From: Phapecoctavirus DIJ07P1
Sequence record: OZ035743.1
Length of the DNA: 64,000 nt
Reading direction: 5' to 3' (one strand)
Shown here: piece after piece, positions 8-9,130 of the stretch
How positions within the stretch are numbered: the stretch's first letter is position 1
Layout: each line of letters starts with the position of its first letter
The notes under the pieces: generated by a model
Database searches by the model: none
What the model was told of the DNA's origin: nothing
Seen by the model: the letters and a program-made list of their open reading frames with translations, nothing else
Program-made: the position numbers and the translations under genes

Positions 8-2032
8 ATGAATTTAACAAGACCTAATAGTGCGATAGCCGATCTAGTAGAAGCTACTTATCGAAAACGTCGCAGTTTTGAGGCAGGTTTTACATTACGT
101 AATTCCCGTGAAGTTTTGCTGTTAGCGGCAGAAGGGAATTATTACCAATGGAAAGGAACTTTTCCTAAAGTAGTTCCAGCAAACTCTACGCCAGCCACCA
201 CAGGTGGTATTTCTTCCCTTGCATGGCAAAGTGTTGGGACCGCTGATGATATAGCAATTATCAATGCCAAGTTTACGGCAATGCAGCAACAGATTGATGA
301 TCTGTCGGAAACAATACCTGAAGCTGGTAAATCGGCTTATCAGATCGCACTTGATAATGGTTTTGTTGGAACAGAAGCACAATGGCTTGCTTCTTTGAAA
401 GGGGATACTGGTGCTCAACTTAATATTAAAGGATCGTTAGCAAGCACTAGTGAACTACCATCTACAGGTAACGTTGCAGGGGATGGTTATATCGTAGGCG
501 ATGTGATTTACGCTTGGGACGGTTCTGTTTGGAAACTTATTTCTTCTCTTGGACCAGAAGGGAAATCAGCTTACGAGGTATGGTTGGCAGATGGTAATAC
601 AGGATCTGTTTATGACTTTCTTGCCTCTATAAAAGGTGATAAAGGAGACGTTGGTCCTACAGGTCCACAGGGTGCACCTGGTGTCAACGCTAATGGTTTT
701 GATTACCGTGGAGATTTGCCTTCTACAAGTAACTTACCACAACCCAACTCTGAAAACGTAAGCCAAGCTTATTCTATTAATGGTAATCTTTATGTCTCTA
801 ATGGGACAGCTTGGGTCAACATGGGTAATATTGTTGGTCCTCAAGGTCCACAAGGTGAGGCAGGTAAAGACGGTCTAGATGGAACAGATGGAGACGAAGG
901 GAAATCTGCATATCAAAGTTGGCTGGACGCTGGTAATGAAGGGACAGAAGTAGATTTTATTGCCTCGCTTAAAGGTCCAAAAGGAGACAAGGGAGAGCAA
1001 GGAGAACGAGGACCACAAGGCGAATTAGGTCCACAAGGACCAGTGGGTGCAACAGGATCAGGTTTAGAGATTATCGGGGTTCTGAACAGCGAAGCTGAAC
1101 TTCCTCCGACTGGAGAAGTAGGTGATGCATATAAAATTAATAATGATTTGTATGTTTGGGTTCAAGATGCTACAGAATGGATGAATGTTGGCAGTCTTGG
1201 AGGAACATCAATTACAGCCAAAGGTCATGTTCCGAACAGCGAGGCTCTCCCTGTTTATAATAACTATGGTGATGCCTACTTAACTGAGGACACTAGTAAT
1301 CTTTACATCTATACCTACGATCAAGACACCAATTCCGCATCTTTTGTTGACATGGGGAGTATTAAAGGTGACAAAGGTGAAAAAGGGGATAAAGGAGATA
1401 AGGGTGATCCTGGAACAAACGGAACCAACGGTACTGATGGAACCAACGGTAAGGACGGCGCACAGTGGTTTGTAGCAACAACTAATCCAGTCACAGGAGA
1501 TGGTGTTATCAATGATTACGCCTTCAATACTACCACTGGGGCAGTGTTTAAGAAAACAGATTCTTCTACGTGGACACTTATAGGAACTCTTCCTAGTATA
1601 CCAGAAGCCCCTCAAGATGGCTTGACGTATGGTCGTTCTGATGGAAACTGGATCGAAATATCAGGATCAGATCCTACGGAAGCTATAACACCAACTAGAG
1701 TTACAGCAGGTTTCATGGAACTTGAAACAACTACTGCCAACTCTGGAGCATCTTGGACTCCTTCTGGAACTTCCAATATGTATGTTGTTACAGTAACTGA
1801 CGCTTTGACAGTTGGAGCATGGCCTGGTGTCACTGGCTCTACAAAACCTAAAGCGTTTTCAGCAATGATTTATTTGATTCAAGATACAACGGGACACACG
1901 GTTACACTAGATGCGTCTTATGGAGCACTAAATGATACAGAAATAGCAACTACTGCTAACGCAGTAACAATTTTGCAATTAACGTATCCTGGTGTGGGCG
2001 ATATCGTGGACATGGTTGTTGTAACACGATAA
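8..2032 (+). CDS. Tail-fibre-like structural protein with collagen-like Gly-X-Y tracts
   Basis: 674-aa ORF; Gly-X-Y runs (GPKGDKGEQGERGPQGELGPQGPVGATG; KGDKGEKGDKGDKGDPGTNGTNGTDGTNGKDG) alternating with repeated GKSAYQ/GKSAYEVWL modules; terminator follows. Confidence 0.75.
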   Translation: MNLTRPNSAIADLVEATYRKRRSFEAGFTLRNSREVLLLAAEGNYYQWKGTFPKVVPANSTPATTGGISSLAWQSVGTADDIAIINAKFTAMQQQIDDLSETIPEAGKSAYQIALDNGFVGTEAQWLASLKGDTGAQLNIKGSLASTSELPSTGNVAGDGYIVGDVIYAWDGSVWKLISSLGPEGKSAYEVWLADGNTGSVYDFLASIKGDKGDVGPTGPQGAPGVNANGFDYRGDLPSTSNLPQPNSENVSQAYSINGNLYVSNGTAWVNMGNIVGPQGPQGEAGKDGLDGTDGDEGKSAYQSWLDAGNEGTEVDFIASLKGPKGDKGEQGERGPQGELGPQGPVGATGSGLEIIGVLNSEAELPPTGEVGDAYKINNDLYVWVQDATEWMNVGSLGGTSITAKGHVPNSEALPVYNNYGDAYLTEDTSNLYIYTYDQDTNSASFVDMGSIKGDKGEKGDKGDKGDPGTNGTNGTDGTNGKDGAQWFVATTNPVTGDGVINDYAFNTTTGAVFKKTDSSTWTLIGTLPSIPEAPQDGLTYGRSDGNWIEISGSDPTEAITPTRVTAGFMELETTTANSGASWTPSGTSNMYVVTVTDALTVGAWPGVTGSTKPKAFSAMIYLIQDTTGHTVTLDASYGALNDTEIATTANAVTILQLTYPGVGDIVDMVVVTR

Positions 2033-2035
2033 CAG

Positions 2036-2058
2036 AAGCCCCGAAAGGGGCTTTCTTT
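2036..2058 (+). terminator. Rho-independent terminator
   Basis: agccccgaaaggggct hairpin followed by T-run. Confidence 0.7.
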
Positions 2059-2073
2059 TTATGGAGGGTTTAA

Positions 2074-3840
2074 ATGTTTCCAATTCCAATATTTACTATT
2101 ATGACCAGCACTGGTGTCGTTCCTCTGCCAGCAGGTATTGTTAAAAAAGTAATCACTTTAGATTACCCAGATAATGCTGGTAATTCTAACAGCAGTTTAG
2201 CAATTTTGCTTAATGATGGTAGATTGTTTACTCAAGGCGCAAACCTTTTTGGTGAGATTGCAGATGGAACTCGTAGTGCACGATTCAATAATTTCCACTT
2301 AGCTTCTACTGTAGTAGCGGATGTGTTTACCGCAGATCGTTGTTTTGTTATTAAAACTAACAGTGGGGGATGGCAATATTCAGGATTGACAGCAGGGTTG
2401 GTAGGATCTATAGCAGCAGGTGGTACGGATGCATGTGTAACTACCTGGACCAGCTTTCCATCTGTAATAACAGGGACTATTTCTTTAGCCAATCTTAAAG
2501 AGGTTAAAGGAGGGTATAACAATACTCTCTGGTTAATGAATAGTGGTGTTCTTTATGGATCGGGTCAAAACACAGTGGGTAGTTTAGGTGCAAGCACTAC
2601 TAACGAAGTTTCTACTCCTCGTCAGATAACAAGCGCAGCAGTTGCTTTTGATGCAGGTTACAACCAATGCTCTTATGTCAACAATGTGGGAACCTTGCGT
2701 GTTTGTGGAGCTAGTAAAGGTTTAGCAGGTAATAATAACACAACAACAGCTTTTGTCAATGCCACAATATCCGCTACTGAAACAGTGTATGTCAAAGATT
2801 ACATCAATACAGTTTCCCAGACAATAGTTGTAGGAGATACCTCCGGTGGCACGGGTACAGTAAACTACTTATATGTTAGATCTAATACAGAAACAACCTA
2901 CACTAAACTGGATACCTTTGCAGCAGGTTTCTCAACATGGAAGTTTCCACCAAGCCGCCACTCTTTTTTCGTTGGGATCAATAATTCCTTGTGGGCTATT
3001 GGTAAGAACTACACTGCAAACTTAGGTTTGGGGTATGATTCTGCGAGCGGAGATCCACTCCAAGTGGGAAAACCAGTTAAACCTGAAGGAGTGGGTTCTT
3101 GGGATATAAACAAGCTCACAAGCGTTCATACGCTGAATATGGATGTTACTAACCAATTAGGTTATCAAGGAACCTTTTTCGTTTATAATGGAGATATGTA
3201 TTATTCCGGTATTTGGAAAGATGGGAAAGCCTCGTATCTGTTCAATAGTGGTCTAAACTATAATAAATTCACACCAATAGCAAGCTCCGTGATTACGGGC
3301 GATATTCTGGCAACTGGCTTAACTACAGATTCTTTAGGAATTTGTATTGTAGGTGGAACTAAACAGTTGACACATTCTGTTAGCCCAGAAGGAGGTAAAC
3401 TTTTCAATATTAAATACACTTCTTCTGCCCCTGCAAACATGACAATATCATCTACTGGTTTAATGACTTTCCATGCAGAAGGTGGTTTTGATGCAGGTAT
3501 GACAGCCTTAAACGCTGAAGGAACAACTTTATCAGATACCTCTGGAGGATATGCTTCAACATTGAGTGTTTACACCCCTAGCTTATCTGCGATGGATGTA
3601 GGAACAACACAAACAATGGTAGCAGAAATAACGCCAACAGGAGCAGCAAGCTTACCTGGTATGGTTGTTGAGTATTTCTCTAATGACCCTACGGTAGCAA
3701 CAGTTGACCCCGTTACAGGCGTTATTACAGCGGTTGCTGATGGAGGTTGTCGTATCGGTTGTAGAGCAACTTATCAAGGTGTGGTAACTGCCGAAGATAG
3801 TTCTTATCTCACAGTGAATGCTGTGGTGATTATGATTTGA
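2074..3840 (+). CDS. Tail fibre / structural protein with C-terminal Ig-like (Big_2-like) region
   Basis: 588-aa ORF, Gly/Thr/Ser/Asn-rich; C-terminal segment resembles bacterial Ig-like domain; RBS GGAGGG upstream. Confidence 0.65.
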   Translation: MFPIPIFTIMTSTGVVPLPAGIVKKVITLDYPDNAGNSNSSLAILLNDGRLFTQGANLFGEIADGTRSARFNNFHLASTVVADVFTADRCFVIKTNSGGWQYSGLTAGLVGSIAAGGTDACVTTWTSFPSVITGTISLANLKEVKGGYNNTLWLMNSGVLYGSGQNTVGSLGASTTNEVSTPRQITSAAVAFDAGYNQCSYVNNVGTLRVCGASKGLAGNNNTTTAFVNATISATETVYVKDYINTVSQTIVVGDTSGGTGTVNYLYVRSNTETTYTKLDTFAAGFSTWKFPPSRHSFFVGINNSLWAIGKNYTANLGLGYDSASGDPLQVGKPVKPEGVGSWDINKLTSVHTLNMDVTNQLGYQGTFFVYNGDMYYSGIWKDGKASYLFNSGLNYNKFTPIASSVITGDILATGLTTDSLGICIVGGTKQLTHSVSPEGGKLFNIKYTSSAPANMTISSTGLMTFHAEGGFDAGMTALNAEGTTLSDTSGGYASTLSVYTPSLSAMDVGTTQTMVAEITPTGAASLPGMVVEYFSNDPTVATVDPVTGVITAVADGGCRIGCRATYQGVVTAEDSSYLTVNAVVIMI

Positions 3841-3912
3841 CGCAAGAAACTATTCCGGCGGATTGGGGATCGAAGTTCATTACAGGTTTGAAATATTACG
3901 ACTAATAAAAAA

Positions 3913-3932
3913 GGGAACCCGCAAAGGTTCCC
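3913..3932. terminator. Bidirectional terminator between convergent genes
   Basis: gggaacc-cgcaaa-ggttccc hairpin flanked by A-run upstream and T-run downstream. Confidence 0.7.
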
Positions 3933-3968
3933 TTTTCTTTTATAAAAACTCTTTATAAATCAATAAGA

Positions 3969-4856
3969 TCAGAACGGAATATCATCGTCGAAGTCCATTG
4001 GAGGTTCTTCTTGATTACTTGGAGTTGGTTCTGGTTGTGGTTCAGGTTTCTTAACTTCTTTCTTCTCTTCTTTCTTAGGCTGTTCTGCGGAACCACGAAT
4101 GGCAGCAGCAACTTTATCAGACAGAGCCAGAACTTTACGAGCAGAGTCGATCAGATCTTCTACAGATACAGTCTTAATGGTATGGTCTTTACAAGCATTG
4201 AGGATAGCGTGACCAACAGATGCCCCAAGATCATAATCATTAATATCAACACCACGAGATTCAGCAATTTCCGATTTCAGTGTGACAGTTGCAGATTGAA
4301 CAACCCCAGCGATATCGAAAGCATCGCCTTTAACACCATTACGAATCAGTTCCAGTGCACCATTTACTGCGTGACCAGTTTCCAGACCTACAGTATCACG
4401 TTTTTTATAGGACTGCTTAGGAGCAGCATCGTTGGAACCTTTATTACCAGAAGATTTGTTAGACTTCTGAACACCATCGGTAGACAATACTGTAATACGA
4501 GATTTTTTAGTATTGTAGTAAGTTTTACCGCCTTTATTATCAACGCGATCAATATCAATACTTACTTCTACACCTTTTTCAATAGTGATCCAATTATCAC
4601 CTTCTTTGACTTGCAGGTTTTCATAACCTTCTTTCAGTTCAATGTCACCAAGAGAAATCCAAACACCTTTCTCATCTGGTTTAGCACCTTTCTCTTTCAG
4701 AACAAGAGAGGCTCGGTGAGTTGAAACAATCGTTTTTCCTTCCCAATGAAAAGTTTTAGGTTCAGCGAATTTATCCAGTTTAACGTAGTCTACGATACCA
4801 GTTGCATAAGTTACGGTTTTGCCTTTACGATCAGTTTCAGTATTAATTACGGACAT
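3969..4856 (-). CDS. ssb: Single-stranded DNA-binding protein
   Basis: 295 aa; C-terminus PMDFDDDIPF matches the acidic SSB tail (DDDIPF); Gly/Lys-rich linker before tail. Confidence 0.75.
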   Translation of the reverse strand: MSVINTETDRKGKTVTYATGIVDYVKLDKFAEPKTFHWEGKTIVSTHRASLVLKEKGAKPDEKGVWISLGDIELKEGYENLQVKEGDNWITIEKGVEVSIDIDRVDNKGGKTYYNTKKSRITVLSTDGVQKSNKSSGNKGSNDAAPKQSYKKRDTVGLETGHAVNGALELIRNGVKGDAFDIAGVVQSATVTLKSEIAESRGVDINDYDLGASVGHAILNACKDHTIKTVSVEDLIDSARKVLALSDKVAAAIRGSAEQPKKEEKKEVKKPEPQPEPTPSNQEEPPMDFDDDIPF

Positions 4857-4872
4857 TATTATCTCCTCTACA

Positions 4873-5265
4873 TTACATTAATTTTGCACAGAAAGAGCGG
4901 AGTCTTTCCATATCATCTTGCTCTAACAGGTATTTACCTTTACCTATTCCAACTCCAATTTCACCATTAGGAAAATGAACTATTTGCACTGGGAAACCTC
5001 CGAGTTTAATTGTGGCAGCTTTGCCTTCTTCGTCTATAACGTTTCGGATTGTATCTTGCAGTGAAATGAATTCTTTGTTTGTAACAGTGGTTTCAATTAT
5101 TTCAGATGTTTCGACACGAGCAGTTAGCTTCTTGTTTCCACCTTGAATAACCAAAATTTGAAAATAAAAAGAGTTGTCAAGACCTACAACATTTTTCTCA
5201 ACTAGTGTCAAACTGGTGTAGTTTCCATAAACAGTTTCAACAGCTATCTTAGAACGTTCAGTCAT
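4873..5265 (-). CDS. Hypothetical protein
   Basis: 130-aa ORF in compact minus-strand operon; no motif recognised. Confidence 0.55.
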   Translation of the reverse strand: MTERSKIAVETVYGNYTSLTLVEKNVVGLDNSFYFQILVIQGGNKKLTARVETSEIIETTVTNKEFISLQDTIRNVIDEEGKAATIKLGGFPVQIVHFPNGEIGVGIGKGKYLLEQDDMERLRSFCAKLM

Positions 5266-5310
5266 TGAATGCTATCCTATCATAAAATGTTTAATATTGT
5301 CAAGCTTTAA

Positions 5311-5904
5311 TTACCAAGGAATATCATCTTCTTCCAATCTGGTATCTACTTGAGGTGGACGTGGAACCTTAACCTCTTTCACAAAACGAAGATATGGGAA
5401 ACGTGTAGCAATTTTAATAACGTGTTTGGCATCTTCTCTAACATCTTTGTGCAAGAAGCAGATCCCTGTTTCCAAAGTTGTTTCAAAATCTTTAGAGTAA
5501 TAACAATCCTTCCCATCAAATGCAGCCTGGCAGATGGACAGATCAAACTCATTTAGAAAGGTTGTCATTACGCTTGGTTCCATAATCATAAGGTTGCAAA
5601 GCTGACCATCACGTTCAAACTCAAAAACGTGTTTAAGACCAGTAACACCCTCGTAGTTATCCGAAGCTTCTTTGTTTCCTAATTTACGAACATTAGTTCC
5701 CATCAAAGCAGATGCAATCAATTCTTGTATTTGCTCTTCTGATCGATGTGCAGGAAGAGACGTGTAAAAATCCAGATCACGTCCAGCAATATCAAGAATA
5801 CGCCAATCACGAACAGCGCCGCCAGCCAAGACAGAATTAGGATCAGCAATCTTTAATACGGTAAGAATTTCTTTGGCAATATTGATTTGTTTTGATTTAG
5901 TCAT
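5311..5904 (-). CDS. Pol-beta-type nucleotidyltransferase (CCA-adding-enzyme head-domain-like)
   Basis: 197 aa; LAGGAVRDW...DLD matches the GGxVRD plus DxD signature of tRNA nucleotidyltransferase head domains. Confidence 0.55.
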   Translation of the reverse strand: MTKSKQINIAKEILTVLKIADPNSVLAGGAVRDWRILDIAGRDLDFYTSLPAHRSEEQIQELIASALMGTNVRKLGNKEASDNYEGVTGLKHVFEFERDGQLCNLMIMEPSVMTTFLNEFDLSICQAAFDGKDCYYSKDFETTLETGICFLHKDVREDAKHVIKIATRFPYLRFVKEVKVPRPPQVDTRLEEDDIPW

Positions 5905-6115
5905 GGATACGCCCCACAGTTACTTTTACAACATCGTCCATATTAATCTCATCCCCCAAGACCTCAATAACACCTTCCTCATAAAGTCGAGCACATTCTT
6001 CCCACACTTCAGCTTCCGTCATTCCACCTGCAATCTTATTTGCAAGACCTTTAATAACATCTTCATTTTGTTCATCAACAAGAATTGAAACATTAAAGCT
6101 CACTAATTTACGCAT
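5897..6115 (-). CDS. Hypothetical protein
   Basis: 72-aa ORF, 8-nt overlap with upstream gene; RBS present. Confidence 0.5.
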   Translation of the reverse strand: MRKLVSFNVSILVDEQNEDVIKGLANKIAGGMTEAEVWEECARLYEEGVIEVLGDEINMDDVVKVTVGRIHD

Positions 6116-6125
6116 TGTTTTCTCC

Positions 6126-6293
6126 TTATACTTCTAAACGGAAAGTTTCTTTAGATACAAAATCGTATCCACCTTTTTCAAGCCAGTCATTGTAAACCTC
6201 ATCGGCTTGAGACTCTATCATAAAATACCGAGTGATAACTTCGTCTCCGACAATACGCACAATTTTATAGCAAATCATGATACCATTTCCCAT
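6126..6293 (-). CDS. Hypothetical small protein (below ORF-track cutoff)
   Basis: about 55-aa ORF read manually; ATG overlaps stop of upstream gene (TAATG); boundaries approximate. Confidence 0.35.
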   Translation of the reverse strand: MGNGIMICYKIVRIVGDEVITRYFMIESQADEVYNDWLEKGGYDFVSKETFRLEV

Positions 6294-6484
6294 TAATCTT
6301 CCTCCAGATCAATTTCATTATAACAATGTATGCAGAAACCATCATTGTGCATATGTTGTTCATAGGACATATCTTTACCACAAGACCAACAACGGATATC
6401 CCCATCGTCCCATTCACGTTCTTCTTCACCTTCAAATTCATCTGGTAGATAAGGCATACCAAGACAATCTAAATCGTAATGCAT
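6293..6484 (-). CDS. Small acidic zinc-ribbon protein
   Basis: 63 aa; CWSCG...CIHC Cys pairs; GGAGG RBS upstream; preferred over overlapping 6265..6462 frame. Confidence 0.6.
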   Translation of the reverse strand: MHYDLDCLGMPYLPDEFEGEEEREWDDGDIRCWSCGKDMSYEQHMHNDGFCIHCYNEIDLEED

Positions 6485-6500
6485 ATCTCCTCCTATAAAG

Positions 6501-6522
6501 GGGCAGAAGCCCCTTATAAAAC
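6501..6522 (-). terminator. Hairpin downstream of DNA polymerase gene
   Basis: aaggggc-aga-gcccctt stem-loop; weak T-tract. Confidence 0.45.
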
Positions 6523-6532
6523 AATGAGTTAA

Positions 6533-9130
6533 CTAGTGACAGGACGCCCAGGAGTTACCCACATCATATCCGGCAGTAAGCTGAACATTAAGATTGTAAA
6601 ATTCTCCAGCCTTAGTAACAGCTAAAGCAGCAAGTTCACCTGCCCGACTATAGGCTGTAAACCATCCACCTTTGGGAGATTCATGAATGTTAGCCCAAAT
6701 TTGCCCTGTCTCTTTTTCCTTATTATGCTTCCATTCTTCAACTTTAGCAAGGCATTCTTTATCAATTTTCTTTTGTTCTTCAGGATCGTCTACTTTCTTC
6801 CAACCTAATGATTCAGGTGAAAACCATTTAAATTCTACAAGGTTACGAGAAACTTCAAGCTGGGCTTCATCGTGATATGCAATCATTTGTTGCACGAAGT
6901 CTTTATTCTTCCAGTCATCTTTAAAGAAGTCAACACTTAGCCCTTCTTCTTCGATCATGTCGTCATAAATAACCATTGCACGTTTAGCACAGATAACCCC
7001 ACCACTTTGGAACAGAGAGTTAAGAATCGCGTGAGCAGAACGAGTAGGAACCTTACGACCGTCAATACCCAAAACATACTGTTTACCAGTCTTAACCCAG
7101 AAATCGTTTAAACGTTCTTTAAGACGCGCCAGTGGGAATGCAGCTTCCCAGAAAGCATCGAACACCAGTTGCCCTGTGTATTTATCGCTACCAATTGTTT
7201 TAGCAACCTTGTCTGCTTGTGCACCATAAGTGATCCCGTATTTAACAGATTTCGCCGGACTACGTTCAAATTTACGCCCAATAGTATCTGTAATACGTTT
7301 TGCCATCATGGTATGAACATCGTTAGGCTTCTCTAACAAGAGAGCGTTACAGTATTCATGAGGCTCCGGTTCGTAGCGCCAACAATAATGCGACTCAATC
7401 TTTGCTTCCAAAGAGTCGAAGTCATAACCGATCTGGAAGTATTTAGGAACTTCTACACCAAACAAGTTACGCATCTCCCATCCAAACAAAGATGTGACAC
7501 GAGGGATATTGGCTACAGACCTATGCTTCATACGAGAGGTTGCAGCATCACATGTAGCGGCTGGTGTAGGAATACGCCCATCCGCCCTTACTGCGGCTAA
7601 GAAACCTTTATCGTATTCTTGATCTTCTTCATCTTCTTCCCAATCAGCACCGCCACCTAAAATAGAGTTCCTACGATGCTTATACGTTAAGTATTCTACA
7701 ATCTGAGTAGCATAAGGAAATTTCTCACCCAAAGCTTGCAGGTTAGGACAAATTTCTTTTTCCTGGCCTTTGGTAAAACATGGGTTAGTCAATACTTTAA
7801 GACCGCGACCTTTACCTTTTGCTATACGCTCTTGAATCTTCCTTTCCAAGGTTTCCGGTGTGCACTCCAGATGATCACAACGATCCTGACAAAAATTAGA
7901 AGATAGAGTTTGCTCAACGTAAGCTCGAATACCTTTCTGAAGTTCTTCCTCGCTCTTTTTAATCTTGGTGCCAGATTTAAGAGTCAAGTCTTTATCTTTA
8001 TATTCAGACGGTACCCAACCTAATCCTACAAGCCAGTTTTTAATATGGGTTGTATCGTTCAATGTTGCAGGGATGTTAGGATCACATAGAGGTTCATCTG
8101 CTGCAACTGGCAGTTTCCACTCTTTCCCCAACATAACTAACCACCAATCGCCATCCCTCTCTTCCAAATGACCATCATGTTTCTTAGCAAAATTAATCAT
8201 ATGGTTAGTTGGCTCTAAGTTCTTTTTAATTTGCAACTTAGGTGGAATAAAAGCCTTAAGATAACCTTTTGTTGCTGGTTTAGGTGGCAAAATAGGCTCA
8301 ACGAGTAAACGAAGACGCTCCATTTCTGCATCCAAAAAAGCAAGGTTCTCTTCTGCTTGCTTCATGTTAAAAGCAAACCCACGGTGTTCCTGGCGTGTAA
8401 TAATGTCTGCTACACGTTGTTCAAGTTCAAATGGACCTTCCCATTTATCATAATCGCCCCATTCTTCCATAAGGTAATTATATACGCTCGTATTGGCTTT
8501 GTTGTCATAGATACAGTAATAAAGCATATCCGCAGCAAAAGTCTTAAATCGATCTTCTTCTGGAATCTCTTTACGGAAATCTATTTTTACATCACCACCT
8601 GCCTTTCGAGAAAGTGCTGCCAAACTATGTCCTGATTTGCCCTCAATCTTTCGATCTGGGTTTAACACTTTACTCAAAATCAAGGAGTCAATAAGTTTTA
8701 CCTTATTTTTGCCCCACGTATTATATTTAACACTGTAATCTAAGCCATAAAACAGTTTTGTAGCCAACCAGTCATAGTTGATACCGTTGTGAGCCACAGC
8801 CATTTCAACTAGATATTCAGGCTTATCTTTAAAATAACCTTCATGATTAATAAAATCTGGGAAATCTTTTAGTTGAAAATGTGTGTAATCTTGCGCCACA
8901 TATTCTTTAAGAACATATGTGTATTTACCATCTGACTCTTCATAAGGACGCCCATCAAAGATGTATTTAGGGCCATCGTGGAAAGCTACTATTTCTCCTG
9001 TTTCATGGTTCTCTAAGACAATACAGTGCATTTGAAATGTGTCTTTGAGACGATAAGGACTAGCTAAATAATCGATAGTGTCATTATTCAACAATCCGTT
9101 TGCTTCAATATCCCATGTAAACTTACTCAC
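6533..9130 (-). CDS. DNA polymerase, family A, with N-terminal 3'-5' exonuclease
   Basis: 865 aa; DIEANGL (Exo I); GYDFDSLEAKI (motif A); RSPAKSVKYGITYGAQ (motif B); YHDEAQLEV (motif C). Confidence 0.9.
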   Translation of the reverse strand: MSKFTWDIEANGLLNNDTIDYLASPYRLKDTFQMHCIVLENHETGEIVAFHDGPKYIFDGRPYEESDGKYTYVLKEYVAQDYTHFQLKDFPDFINHEGYFKDKPEYLVEMAVAHNGINYDWLATKLFYGLDYSVKYNTWGKNKVKLIDSLILSKVLNPDRKIEGKSGHSLAALSRKAGGDVKIDFRKEIPEEDRFKTFAADMLYYCIYDNKANTSVYNYLMEEWGDYDKWEGPFELEQRVADIITRQEHRGFAFNMKQAEENLAFLDAEMERLRLLVEPILPPKPATKGYLKAFIPPKLQIKKNLEPTNHMINFAKKHDGHLEERDGDWWLVMLGKEWKLPVAADEPLCDPNIPATLNDTTHIKNWLVGLGWVPSEYKDKDLTLKSGTKIKKSEEELQKGIRAYVEQTLSSNFCQDRCDHLECTPETLERKIQERIAKGKGRGLKVLTNPCFTKGQEKEICPNLQALGEKFPYATQIVEYLTYKHRRNSILGGGADWEEDEEDQEYDKGFLAAVRADGRIPTPAATCDAATSRMKHRSVANIPRVTSLFGWEMRNLFGVEVPKYFQIGYDFDSLEAKIESHYCWRYEPEPHEYCNALLLEKPNDVHTMMAKRITDTIGRKFERSPAKSVKYGITYGAQADKVAKTIGSDKYTGQLVFDAFWEAAFPLARLKERLNDFWVKTGKQYVLGIDGRKVPTRSAHAILNSLFQSGGVICAKRAMVIYDDMIEEEGLSVDFFKDDWKNKDFVQQMIAYHDEAQLEVSRNLVEFKWFSPESLGWKKVDDPEEQKKIDKECLAKVEEWKHNKEKETGQIWANIHESPKGGWFTAYSRAGELAALAVTKAGEFYNLNVQLTAGYDVGNSWASCH

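Follow-up and report, generated by a model that had tools for sequence, protein, structure and literature searches.

The 64,000-nucleotide window analyzed here, the whole stretch of Phapecoctavirus DIJ07P1 DNA under study (sequence record OZ035743.1), opens with a reading frame in which short Gly-X-Y tracts alternate with a recurring GKSAY module. This raises the questions of what kind of protein is assembled in this way, where on the virion it would sit, and whether its repeats vary in number. A preliminary description of the locus had proposed a modular collagen-like tail fiber whose repeat number may differ between strains. Overall, this interpretation was partly supported by our analysis, and at a probability of roughly three in four, we read the gene as encoding a homotrimeric collagen-like side fiber of a phAPEC8-type myovirus.

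Identity of the gene and its genomic setting

Judged by its nucleotide identity, the window is Phapecoctavirus DNA from a phAPEC8-like coliphage, a myovirus of the Stephanstirmvirinae; over its initial 4 kb, the DNA is 97.6–98% identical to the best-matching genomes, which include phAPEC8, ESCO13, and MirsaeidiM_Esher1. The start of the window falls within the tail-fiber region. The encoded 674-residue protein shares 99.4% identity with phAPEC8 gp087 (YP_007348547, annotated as “tail fiber protein”) and 99.7% with its ESCO5 counterpart, the phAPEC8, ESCO5, and ESCO13 records spanning 99.0–99.7% identity. Phage records covering at least 80% of the protein numbered 125; by identity band, 64 records were at least 90% identical, and dozens of phages carry proteins of about 99% identity that are annotated as tail fibers. 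PHROG 15437 (“tail fiber protein”) aligns with the protein over its full length, residues 1 to 674 pairing with profile positions 1-655/656 (E = 0).

In phAPEC8, the gene order is endosialidase, baseplate wedge proteins, short fiber and assembly protein, lipoprotein, colanidase tailspike gp088, and then gp087. By synteny with phAPEC8, the gene is the last but one in the baseplate/tail-fiber block and directly follows the colanidase tailspike. The proposal of a modular collagen-like fiber of the phage tail is thus in keeping with the PHROG assignment, the Tail_spike_N domain described below, the gene position, and the 99%-identical proteins annotated as tail fibers. The phAPEC8 annotation places a putative terminator at the hairpin matching the one found 3' of the fiber gene in this window. 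Minus-strand and overlapping reading frames listed within the gene were set aside as unsupported by-products of the reading-frame listing.

Module architecture of the protein

From N- to C-terminus, the protein follows the order N-domain, helix, H-B-H-c6-B-c8-H-c10-B-B-c11-(B-like)-foldon-like-knob, in which H is the module opened by GKSAY, B is a beta unit, and c6 to c11 are the Gly-X-Y tracts with 6, 8, 10, and 11 Gly in register (Table 1). The AF2 models were of monomers only, and the full-length model was poor (mean pLDDT 57); they were used for secondary structure and for the knob. The N-domain, the B module, the foldon-like motif, and the C-terminal knob were absent from the preliminary description.

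Table 1. Features of the fiber gene and its 3' flank (nucleotide positions in the window; residues in the 674-residue protein)
Feature	Position	Strand	Residues and remarks
Complete reading frame	8..2032	+	ATG to TAA, 674 aa; phAPEC8 gp087 ortholog, positional equivalent of phi92 gp151
N-terminal Tail_spike_N domain, presumed docking domain	41..238	+	aa 12-77; Pfam PF18668
Short helix, probably a trimeric coiled coil (oligomeric state inferred)	242..313	+	aa 79-102; AF2 helix
H module 1, helix-turn-helix	323..406	+	aa 106-133; HMM E 1.5e-18; AF2 helices 110-116, 123-130
B module 1, four-strand beta unit	431..547	+	aa 142-180; HMM E 1.3e-16
H module 2	557..640	+	aa 184-211; HMM E 1.3e-14
Collagen tract 1, 6 Gly in register	635..682	+	aa 210-225
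B module 2	710..829	+	aa 235-274; HMM E 3.4e-14
Collagen tract 2, 8 Gly	836..901	+	aa 277-298; 5-11 triplets in orthologs
H module 3	896..979	+	aa 297-324; HMM E 7.9e-16
Collagen tract 3, 10 Gly	974..1057	+	aa 323-350; 9/18-nt periodicity
B module 3	1076..1195	+	aa 357-396; HMM E 3e-16
B module 4, longer hairpin insert	1223..1360	+	aa 406-451; HMM E 6.7e-10
Collagen tract 4, 11 Gly	1367..1459	+	aa 454-484; 9-nt tandem periodicity
Divergent B-like beta module, tentative	1463..1591	+	aa 486-528; AF2 beta strands
Foldon-like beta-hairpin motif LPSIPEAPQDGLTYGRSDGNWIEIS	1592..1666	+	aa 529-553
C-terminal beta-sandwich knob, presumed receptor-binding tip	1676..2029	+	aa 557-674
Terminator-like GC hairpin (2035-2054) and T run	2035..2064	+	directly 3' of the stop codon

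The N-terminal domain was recognized by PF18668 with an E-value of 1.2e-19 and 70.6 bits against a gathering cut-off of 25. Its sequence matches in the PDB comprise 9vvr, 9occ, 5w6h, 6nw9, 4oj5, and 4qnl (E 1e-13 to 3e-5), and it resembles the N-terminal regions of CBA120 TSP1/3/4, of G7C gp63.1, and of several spikes of Klebsiella and other phages.

Internal repeat detection bore out the described combination of Gly-X-Y tracts with a repeated GKSAY module, with four tracts and three modules found within the reading frame, beyond what chance would give. GKSAY occurs at residues 107, 185, and 298, and each occurrence starts a module of 28–30 residues (GKSAYxxxLxxGxxGxxxxxLxSxKG) whose three copies are mutually 47–60% identical and are recovered by an iterated module HMM at E-values of 1e-14 to 1e-18. 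The B module spans about 40 residues with the consensus G..(S/T)..LP..G..GDAY.V...LYVW.G..W...G and is present in four copies (iterated HMM E 1e-10 to 1e-16) plus a divergent fifth, the tentative B-like unit, which the iterated B HMM did not recognize and which is 12–34% identical to the B modules in a manual alignment. The AF2 secondary structure is alike across copies, with two short helices in H and four strands in B (pLDDT about 65–80); in the first B module, the strands lie at residues 139–144, 159–163, 166–170, and 175–179 (pLDDT about 75–80).

The four Gly-X-Y tracts are uninterrupted, and the Pfam Collagen profile (PF01391) scored 46.4 bits against a cut-off of 27.2. Asp, Pro, Glu, and Thr are abundant at their X positions and Lys, Gln, and Asp at their Y positions, and a charged, hydroxyproline-free makeup is the style of bacterial and phage collagens. 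In the AF2 monomer, the tracts are unstructured (pLDDT <50). The only repeat signal at the DNA level was a 9-nt periodicity, and since it is detectable only inside the collagen tracts, the H and B copies are old duplications and not recent DNA repeats.

Neither the H nor the B module was recognized by the Pfam or NCBIfam profiles searched, the H-B-H fragment was without a Pfam match, and a literature search for the motif GKSAY returned irrelevant matches only. The profile search of the PDB found no solved structure with an H module, and the sole matches of the H profile there, designed ankyrin repeats (GKTPFDLAIDNGNE), covered half a module only and were judged helix-turn convergence and not homology. 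With the B profile, the PDB search found phiKZ gp184 (E 1.7e-4) and, weakly, a DUF2793 protein of the JBD30 baseplate (E 0.19), and no solved fiber with a B module. Reading the B module as an expanded foldon was not supported, with an hhalign probability of 20% over 13 columns.

The motif that follows the B-like unit is modeled by AF2 as a hairpin (541–544/547–550). By phmmer against the PDB, it matches T4 fibritin foldon fusion constructs at a borderline E-value of 0.003–0.007, and Pfam Fibritin_C (PF07921) scored below threshold on the same residues (13.1 bits vs 21, E 0.11), so the motif is called “foldon-like” and not a member of the family. Up to 16 copies of it occur per protein in other fiber proteins.

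The AF2 model of the C-terminal knob is confident. By sequence, the knob is homologous to the last 112 residues of phiTE chain 9cuy_g, a “putative tail fiber protein,” and its relatives are few: of 1.84 billion representative clusters searched, 28 matched at E <= 1e-10, matches of the foldon-like motif included. It forms the extreme C-terminus in 35 of 37 homologs, where it sits atop shafts of quite different kinds.

Repeat variation among homologs

Among 8000 candidates, 1840 homologs were found at E <= 1e-10, with the repeat pattern conserved. Mapping of the module HMMs onto the best 120 homologs gave 0–20 H modules, 0–11 B modules, and collagen tracts of 4–26 triplets, and among the 70 architectures listed, those bearing PF18668 all start with H-B-H-c6-B and then diverge. 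The same three shaft modules recur in many phage fibers, including those of jumbo phages and fibers encoded in head gene clusters.

The suggestion that repeat number varies between strains held only at a distance. Between lineages and genera, there are 4–11 B modules, and Gly-X-Y tracts 2 and 4 vary from 5 to 11 and from 0 to 13 triplets, respectively, tract 4 being the most length-variable of all. Among close strains, by contrast, the claim was only weakly borne out: in every Phapecoctavirus record listed, the match to the gene is 2022 nt (674 aa) long, except in SKA64 and EP57. In SKA64, a 76-nt tandem duplication of the DNA of the first H module frameshifts the gene, either as a genuine mutation or through an error in assembly, and in EP57, an in-frame deletion of residues 319–480 (162 aa) removes c10-B-B-c11. 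In lineages at 58–86% identity, all notable indels lie in the collagen tracts and are multiples of three residues, which fits with the 9-nt DNA periodicity found only in those tracts.

Sequence conservation is graded along the chain. Against orthologs of 58–65% identity, conservation is 76–80% at the N-terminus and 34–59% in the distal parts, the Tail_spike_N domain being the most conserved part (76% identity). This N-to-C gradient is the usual pattern of fibers, in which the end that attaches is fixed and the working end varies.

A proposed trimeric side fiber, its alternatives, and related systems

Under the side-fiber reading, for which we infer the trimeric state, the triple helix, the docking partner, and the location on the tail, three chains would trimerize along a common axis. 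The collagen tracts, at 16–31 residues and with Asp, Lys, Glu, Gln, and Pro abundant, would be too short to fold alone; their nucleation, register, and clamping would come from the H, B, and foldon-like modules on either side as these trimerize around the same three-fold axis. Prophage collagens of the EPclA type and engineered foldon-collagen chimeras, both described below, offer precedents for this. The assembled fiber would be thin and segmented, a rod roughly 50–60 nm long that could hinge where modules meet, and of this length the 97 collagen residues would contribute about 28 nm at 0.286 nm per residue, the remainder being a rough estimate. The PF18668 domain would dock the fiber onto a branched tail-fiber complex at the baseplate rim, and the distal knob would reversibly contact a structure on the host surface. 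Shaft length would evolve through gain and loss of Gly-X-Y triplets, encoded by 9-nt periodic DNA, and of whole modules. The gene's identity and context, the family assignments, the module scores, the module combinatorics, the conservation gradient, the collagen-tract indels, the EP57 deletion, the terminal knob, the upstream colanidase, and the trimeric prophage collagens were all counted in favor of this explanation.

The docking site is most likely the adaptor region at the N-terminus of the neighboring colanidase tailspike (gp088 ortholog), which would carry the segment that binds the phiTE long tail fiber to its baseplate, or else a nearby site on the rim. The upstream colanidase has a long N-terminal region with D1/D2-type tailspike domains, including PF18668 at residues 302–361, and its residues 11–124 are homologous to residues 14–129 of phiTE chain 9cuy_g (E 1.5e-18). 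[quoted passage not shown] The fiber protein of this study carries only a PF18668-type tailspike domain, located at its very N-terminus. In the branched complexes of CBA120 and G7C, spikes with a short N-terminus hang on spikes with long adaptor N-termini, and by analogy, the fiber probably docks on the colanidase tailspike.

The most serious competitor, which we nevertheless regard as unlikely, is a fiber attached to the capsid or neck, that is, a head spike or whisker that keeps the phage longer at the cell surface, the role suggested for gp52, the capsid spike of Pa223. This spike (9ny6) is the best structural match of both the full-length and the C-terminal models. In phiTE, the gene of a 1099-residue protein with the same H and B modules (phiTE_215) lies between those of the major head protein and the neck, and gp151 could not be placed in the phi92 cryo-EM maps. 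The attachment end argues otherwise: the N-terminus is of the tailspike type (PF18668, E 1e-19), all of its solved homologs are tail-attached spikes, and it is without similarity to the capsid-attachment segment of Pa223. Moreover, the gene lies within the baseplate/tail-fiber block and not in a head block, and the same knob tips 9cuy_g, taken above as a baseplate-anchored fiber.

Much less probable still is that the protein is no receptor-binding fiber and acts in assembly or as an accessory factor, or else outside the virion as a collagen-like adhesin or decoy. Some homologs, such as those of Citrobacter phage Tr1 and AV123, are annotated as “tail assembly protein,” and our literature search on phAPEC8-type and Phapecoctavirus phages found no virion proteomics or imaging for this ortholog, including no proteomic evidence of its presence in virions. 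These annotations are automatic, however, the domain-profile scans detected no chaperone or enzyme domain, and fibers are typically laid out in just this way, with an anchor domain, a long shaft, a terminal knob, and conservation that falls from N to C. The idea that an ordinary reading frame shows these repeats by chance, through its composition or low complexity, draws on the Gly- and Lys-rich composition and on nothing else, and we consider its likelihood negligible. It is already refuted by 5000 residue shuffles, which gave a mean of 0.18 runs of at least 4 and any run of at least 6 in only 0.28% of cases, vs four observed runs of 6–11, and further by the module HMM E-values (1e-10 to 1e-18) and the retention of the pattern in the 1840 homologs.

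A bolder extension of the side-fiber reading is conceivable, although we consider it less likely than not. In this extension, the H and B modules would be so far undescribed but widespread trimerization staples which, together with foldon-like hairpins, would make up a kit for building length-adjustable fibers from collagen that is too short by itself, and gp087/gp151 would be a thin, flexible additional fiber of phi92- and phAPEC8-type phages, hung on the colanidase tailspike and lost to cryo-EM averaging.

The gene is already annotated as a tail fiber or collagen-repeat protein in dozens of near-identical coliphages and is no new kind of system; the fiber is ordinary for its kind, and what is new here is confined to the docking hypothesis and to a module grammar made explicit. 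The modest value of the analysis is descriptive, in that it provides a residue-level module map of a fiber encoded by phi92- and phAPEC8-type phages. The proposed docking of the fiber on the colanidase tailspike is a concrete, testable hypothesis, and short natural collagen segments clamped by small trimerization modules may be of interest to protein engineers.

Several known systems share individual parts of this design. The fiber's 25-residue IPEAPxDGxxYxRxxGxW motif, placed right after the last collagen/beta segment, matches the T4 fibritin foldon at about 12 of 27 positions; unlike the foldon, the motif is not C-terminal, as a 118-residue knob follows, and the protein is not a neck whisker. 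The foldon can register and stabilize collagen triple helices, as in engineered (Gly-Pro-Pro)n-foldon chimeras. The likeness to Pa223 gp52 (9ny6) is one of fold and concerns the distal part only: the N-terminus of gp52 attaches to the capsid, gp52 is without collagen or H modules, and neither the fiber protein nor the B-module profile gave a sequence match to 9ny6. With CBA120 TSP1-4 and G7C gp63.1/gp66, the fiber shares the PF18668-type N-domain and the pairing of a long-adaptor protein with a short-N-terminus protein, but its distal part is collagen-like with a knob, whereas theirs is an enzymatic beta-helix.

The collagen-like proteins EPclA and EPclB of E. coli prophages resemble the fiber in being E. 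coli phage proteins of the side-tail type with collagen flanked by trimerization domains, and they have been shown experimentally to form stable trimers with a collagen helix between such domains (Ghosh et al. 2012, PMC3368898). In them, a single long collagen domain is framed by PfN, PCoil, and PfC (Phage_fiber) flanks, whereas the fiber alternates four short tracts with H and B modules, begins with PF18668, and carries another knob; when the whole protein and its fragments were scanned against Pfam, no PfN/PCoil/PfC-type domains were detected, and only PF18668 and Collagen scored above threshold. In phi92 gp151 and its counterparts in phi92-like phages, which are about 59% identical to the fiber, the length, the position after the colanidase tailspike, and the module order are the same; some collagen tracts are a few triplets longer or shorter, and nothing else of substance sets these proteins apart.

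Length differences at and next to the fibre locus

Comparison of the collagen-like fibre gene with its near relatives reveals two departures in length. In Escherichia phage vB_EcoM_EP57, a phage otherwise 99% identical, the fibre homologue has naturally lost aa 319-480 (corresponding to window 962-1447) without a change of frame; gone with them are collagen tract 3, two B modules (four-strand beta units), and collagen tract 4, or about one-quarter of the shaft. In Escherichia phage SKA64 (OM362897; 301-2401 of its locus), the DNA of the first GKSAY module has undergone a 76-nt tandem duplication, at a site corresponding to window ~323-402. This duplication frameshifts the fibre gene, and the record therefore annotates an N-terminally truncated CDS only; the duplication may be genuine, or it may have arisen during assembly of the sequence.

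The tail protein encoded downstream shares 99% identity with phAPEC8 gp086 (891 aa) over aa 1-588 of the latter and is without the C-terminal ~303 aa present in that protein. All 20 of the relatives listed have ~843 nt extra at the site of this gene, and the junction at window 3400-4000 was spanned by none of the 98 phage records with a match. Judged from these alignments, the shortened protein looks like a natural C-terminal deletion, found within the collection in DIJ07P1 alone.

Features of the fibre locus and of related loci
Feature	Location	Strand	Remarks
Colanidase, phAPEC8 gp088	phAPEC8 locus 8892-11945		gene just upstream of window start
Tail protein, 588 aa	window 2074-3840	+	downstream of fibre gene; RCC1-like beta-propeller and Big_2
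295-aa protein	window 3969-4856	-	acidic C-terminal tail ending DFDDDIPF
197-aa protein	window 5311-5904	-	ends EEDDIPW; neighbour of 295-aa protein
phiTE_215, 'tail fiber protein', 1099 aa	phiTE locus 5005-8304		H/B modules as in DIJ07P1 fibre

Minus-strand proteins

The 295-aa protein is annotated as a single-strand DNA-binding protein in relatives, and PHROGs of that function matched it at the acidic tail only.

Correspondences with phiTE and designed repeats

The first half of the GKSAY (H) module (GKSAYQIALDNGF), at window 323-364 (aa 106-119) and in the other H modules, is similar to the designed ankyrin-repeat consensus GKTPFDLAIDNGNE, a likeness that probably represents convergence on a helix-turn. 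In Pectobacterium phage phiTE, the gene phiTE_215 is placed between the major head protein and neck genes, away from the baseplate genes. Fibres of the head or neck may therefore be built from the H/B module kit as well.

A further correspondence involves phiTE 9cuy_g, a putative tail fiber protein. The N-terminal part of gp088 (aa 11-124) is homologous to 9cuy_g residues 14-129, the stretch for which a model bound to the baseplate wedge exists, and the C-terminal knob of 9cuy_g is common to the DIJ07P1 fibre (8..2032). Thus, a single phiTE protein has its counterparts at the ends of two neighbouring proteins in phAPEC8.
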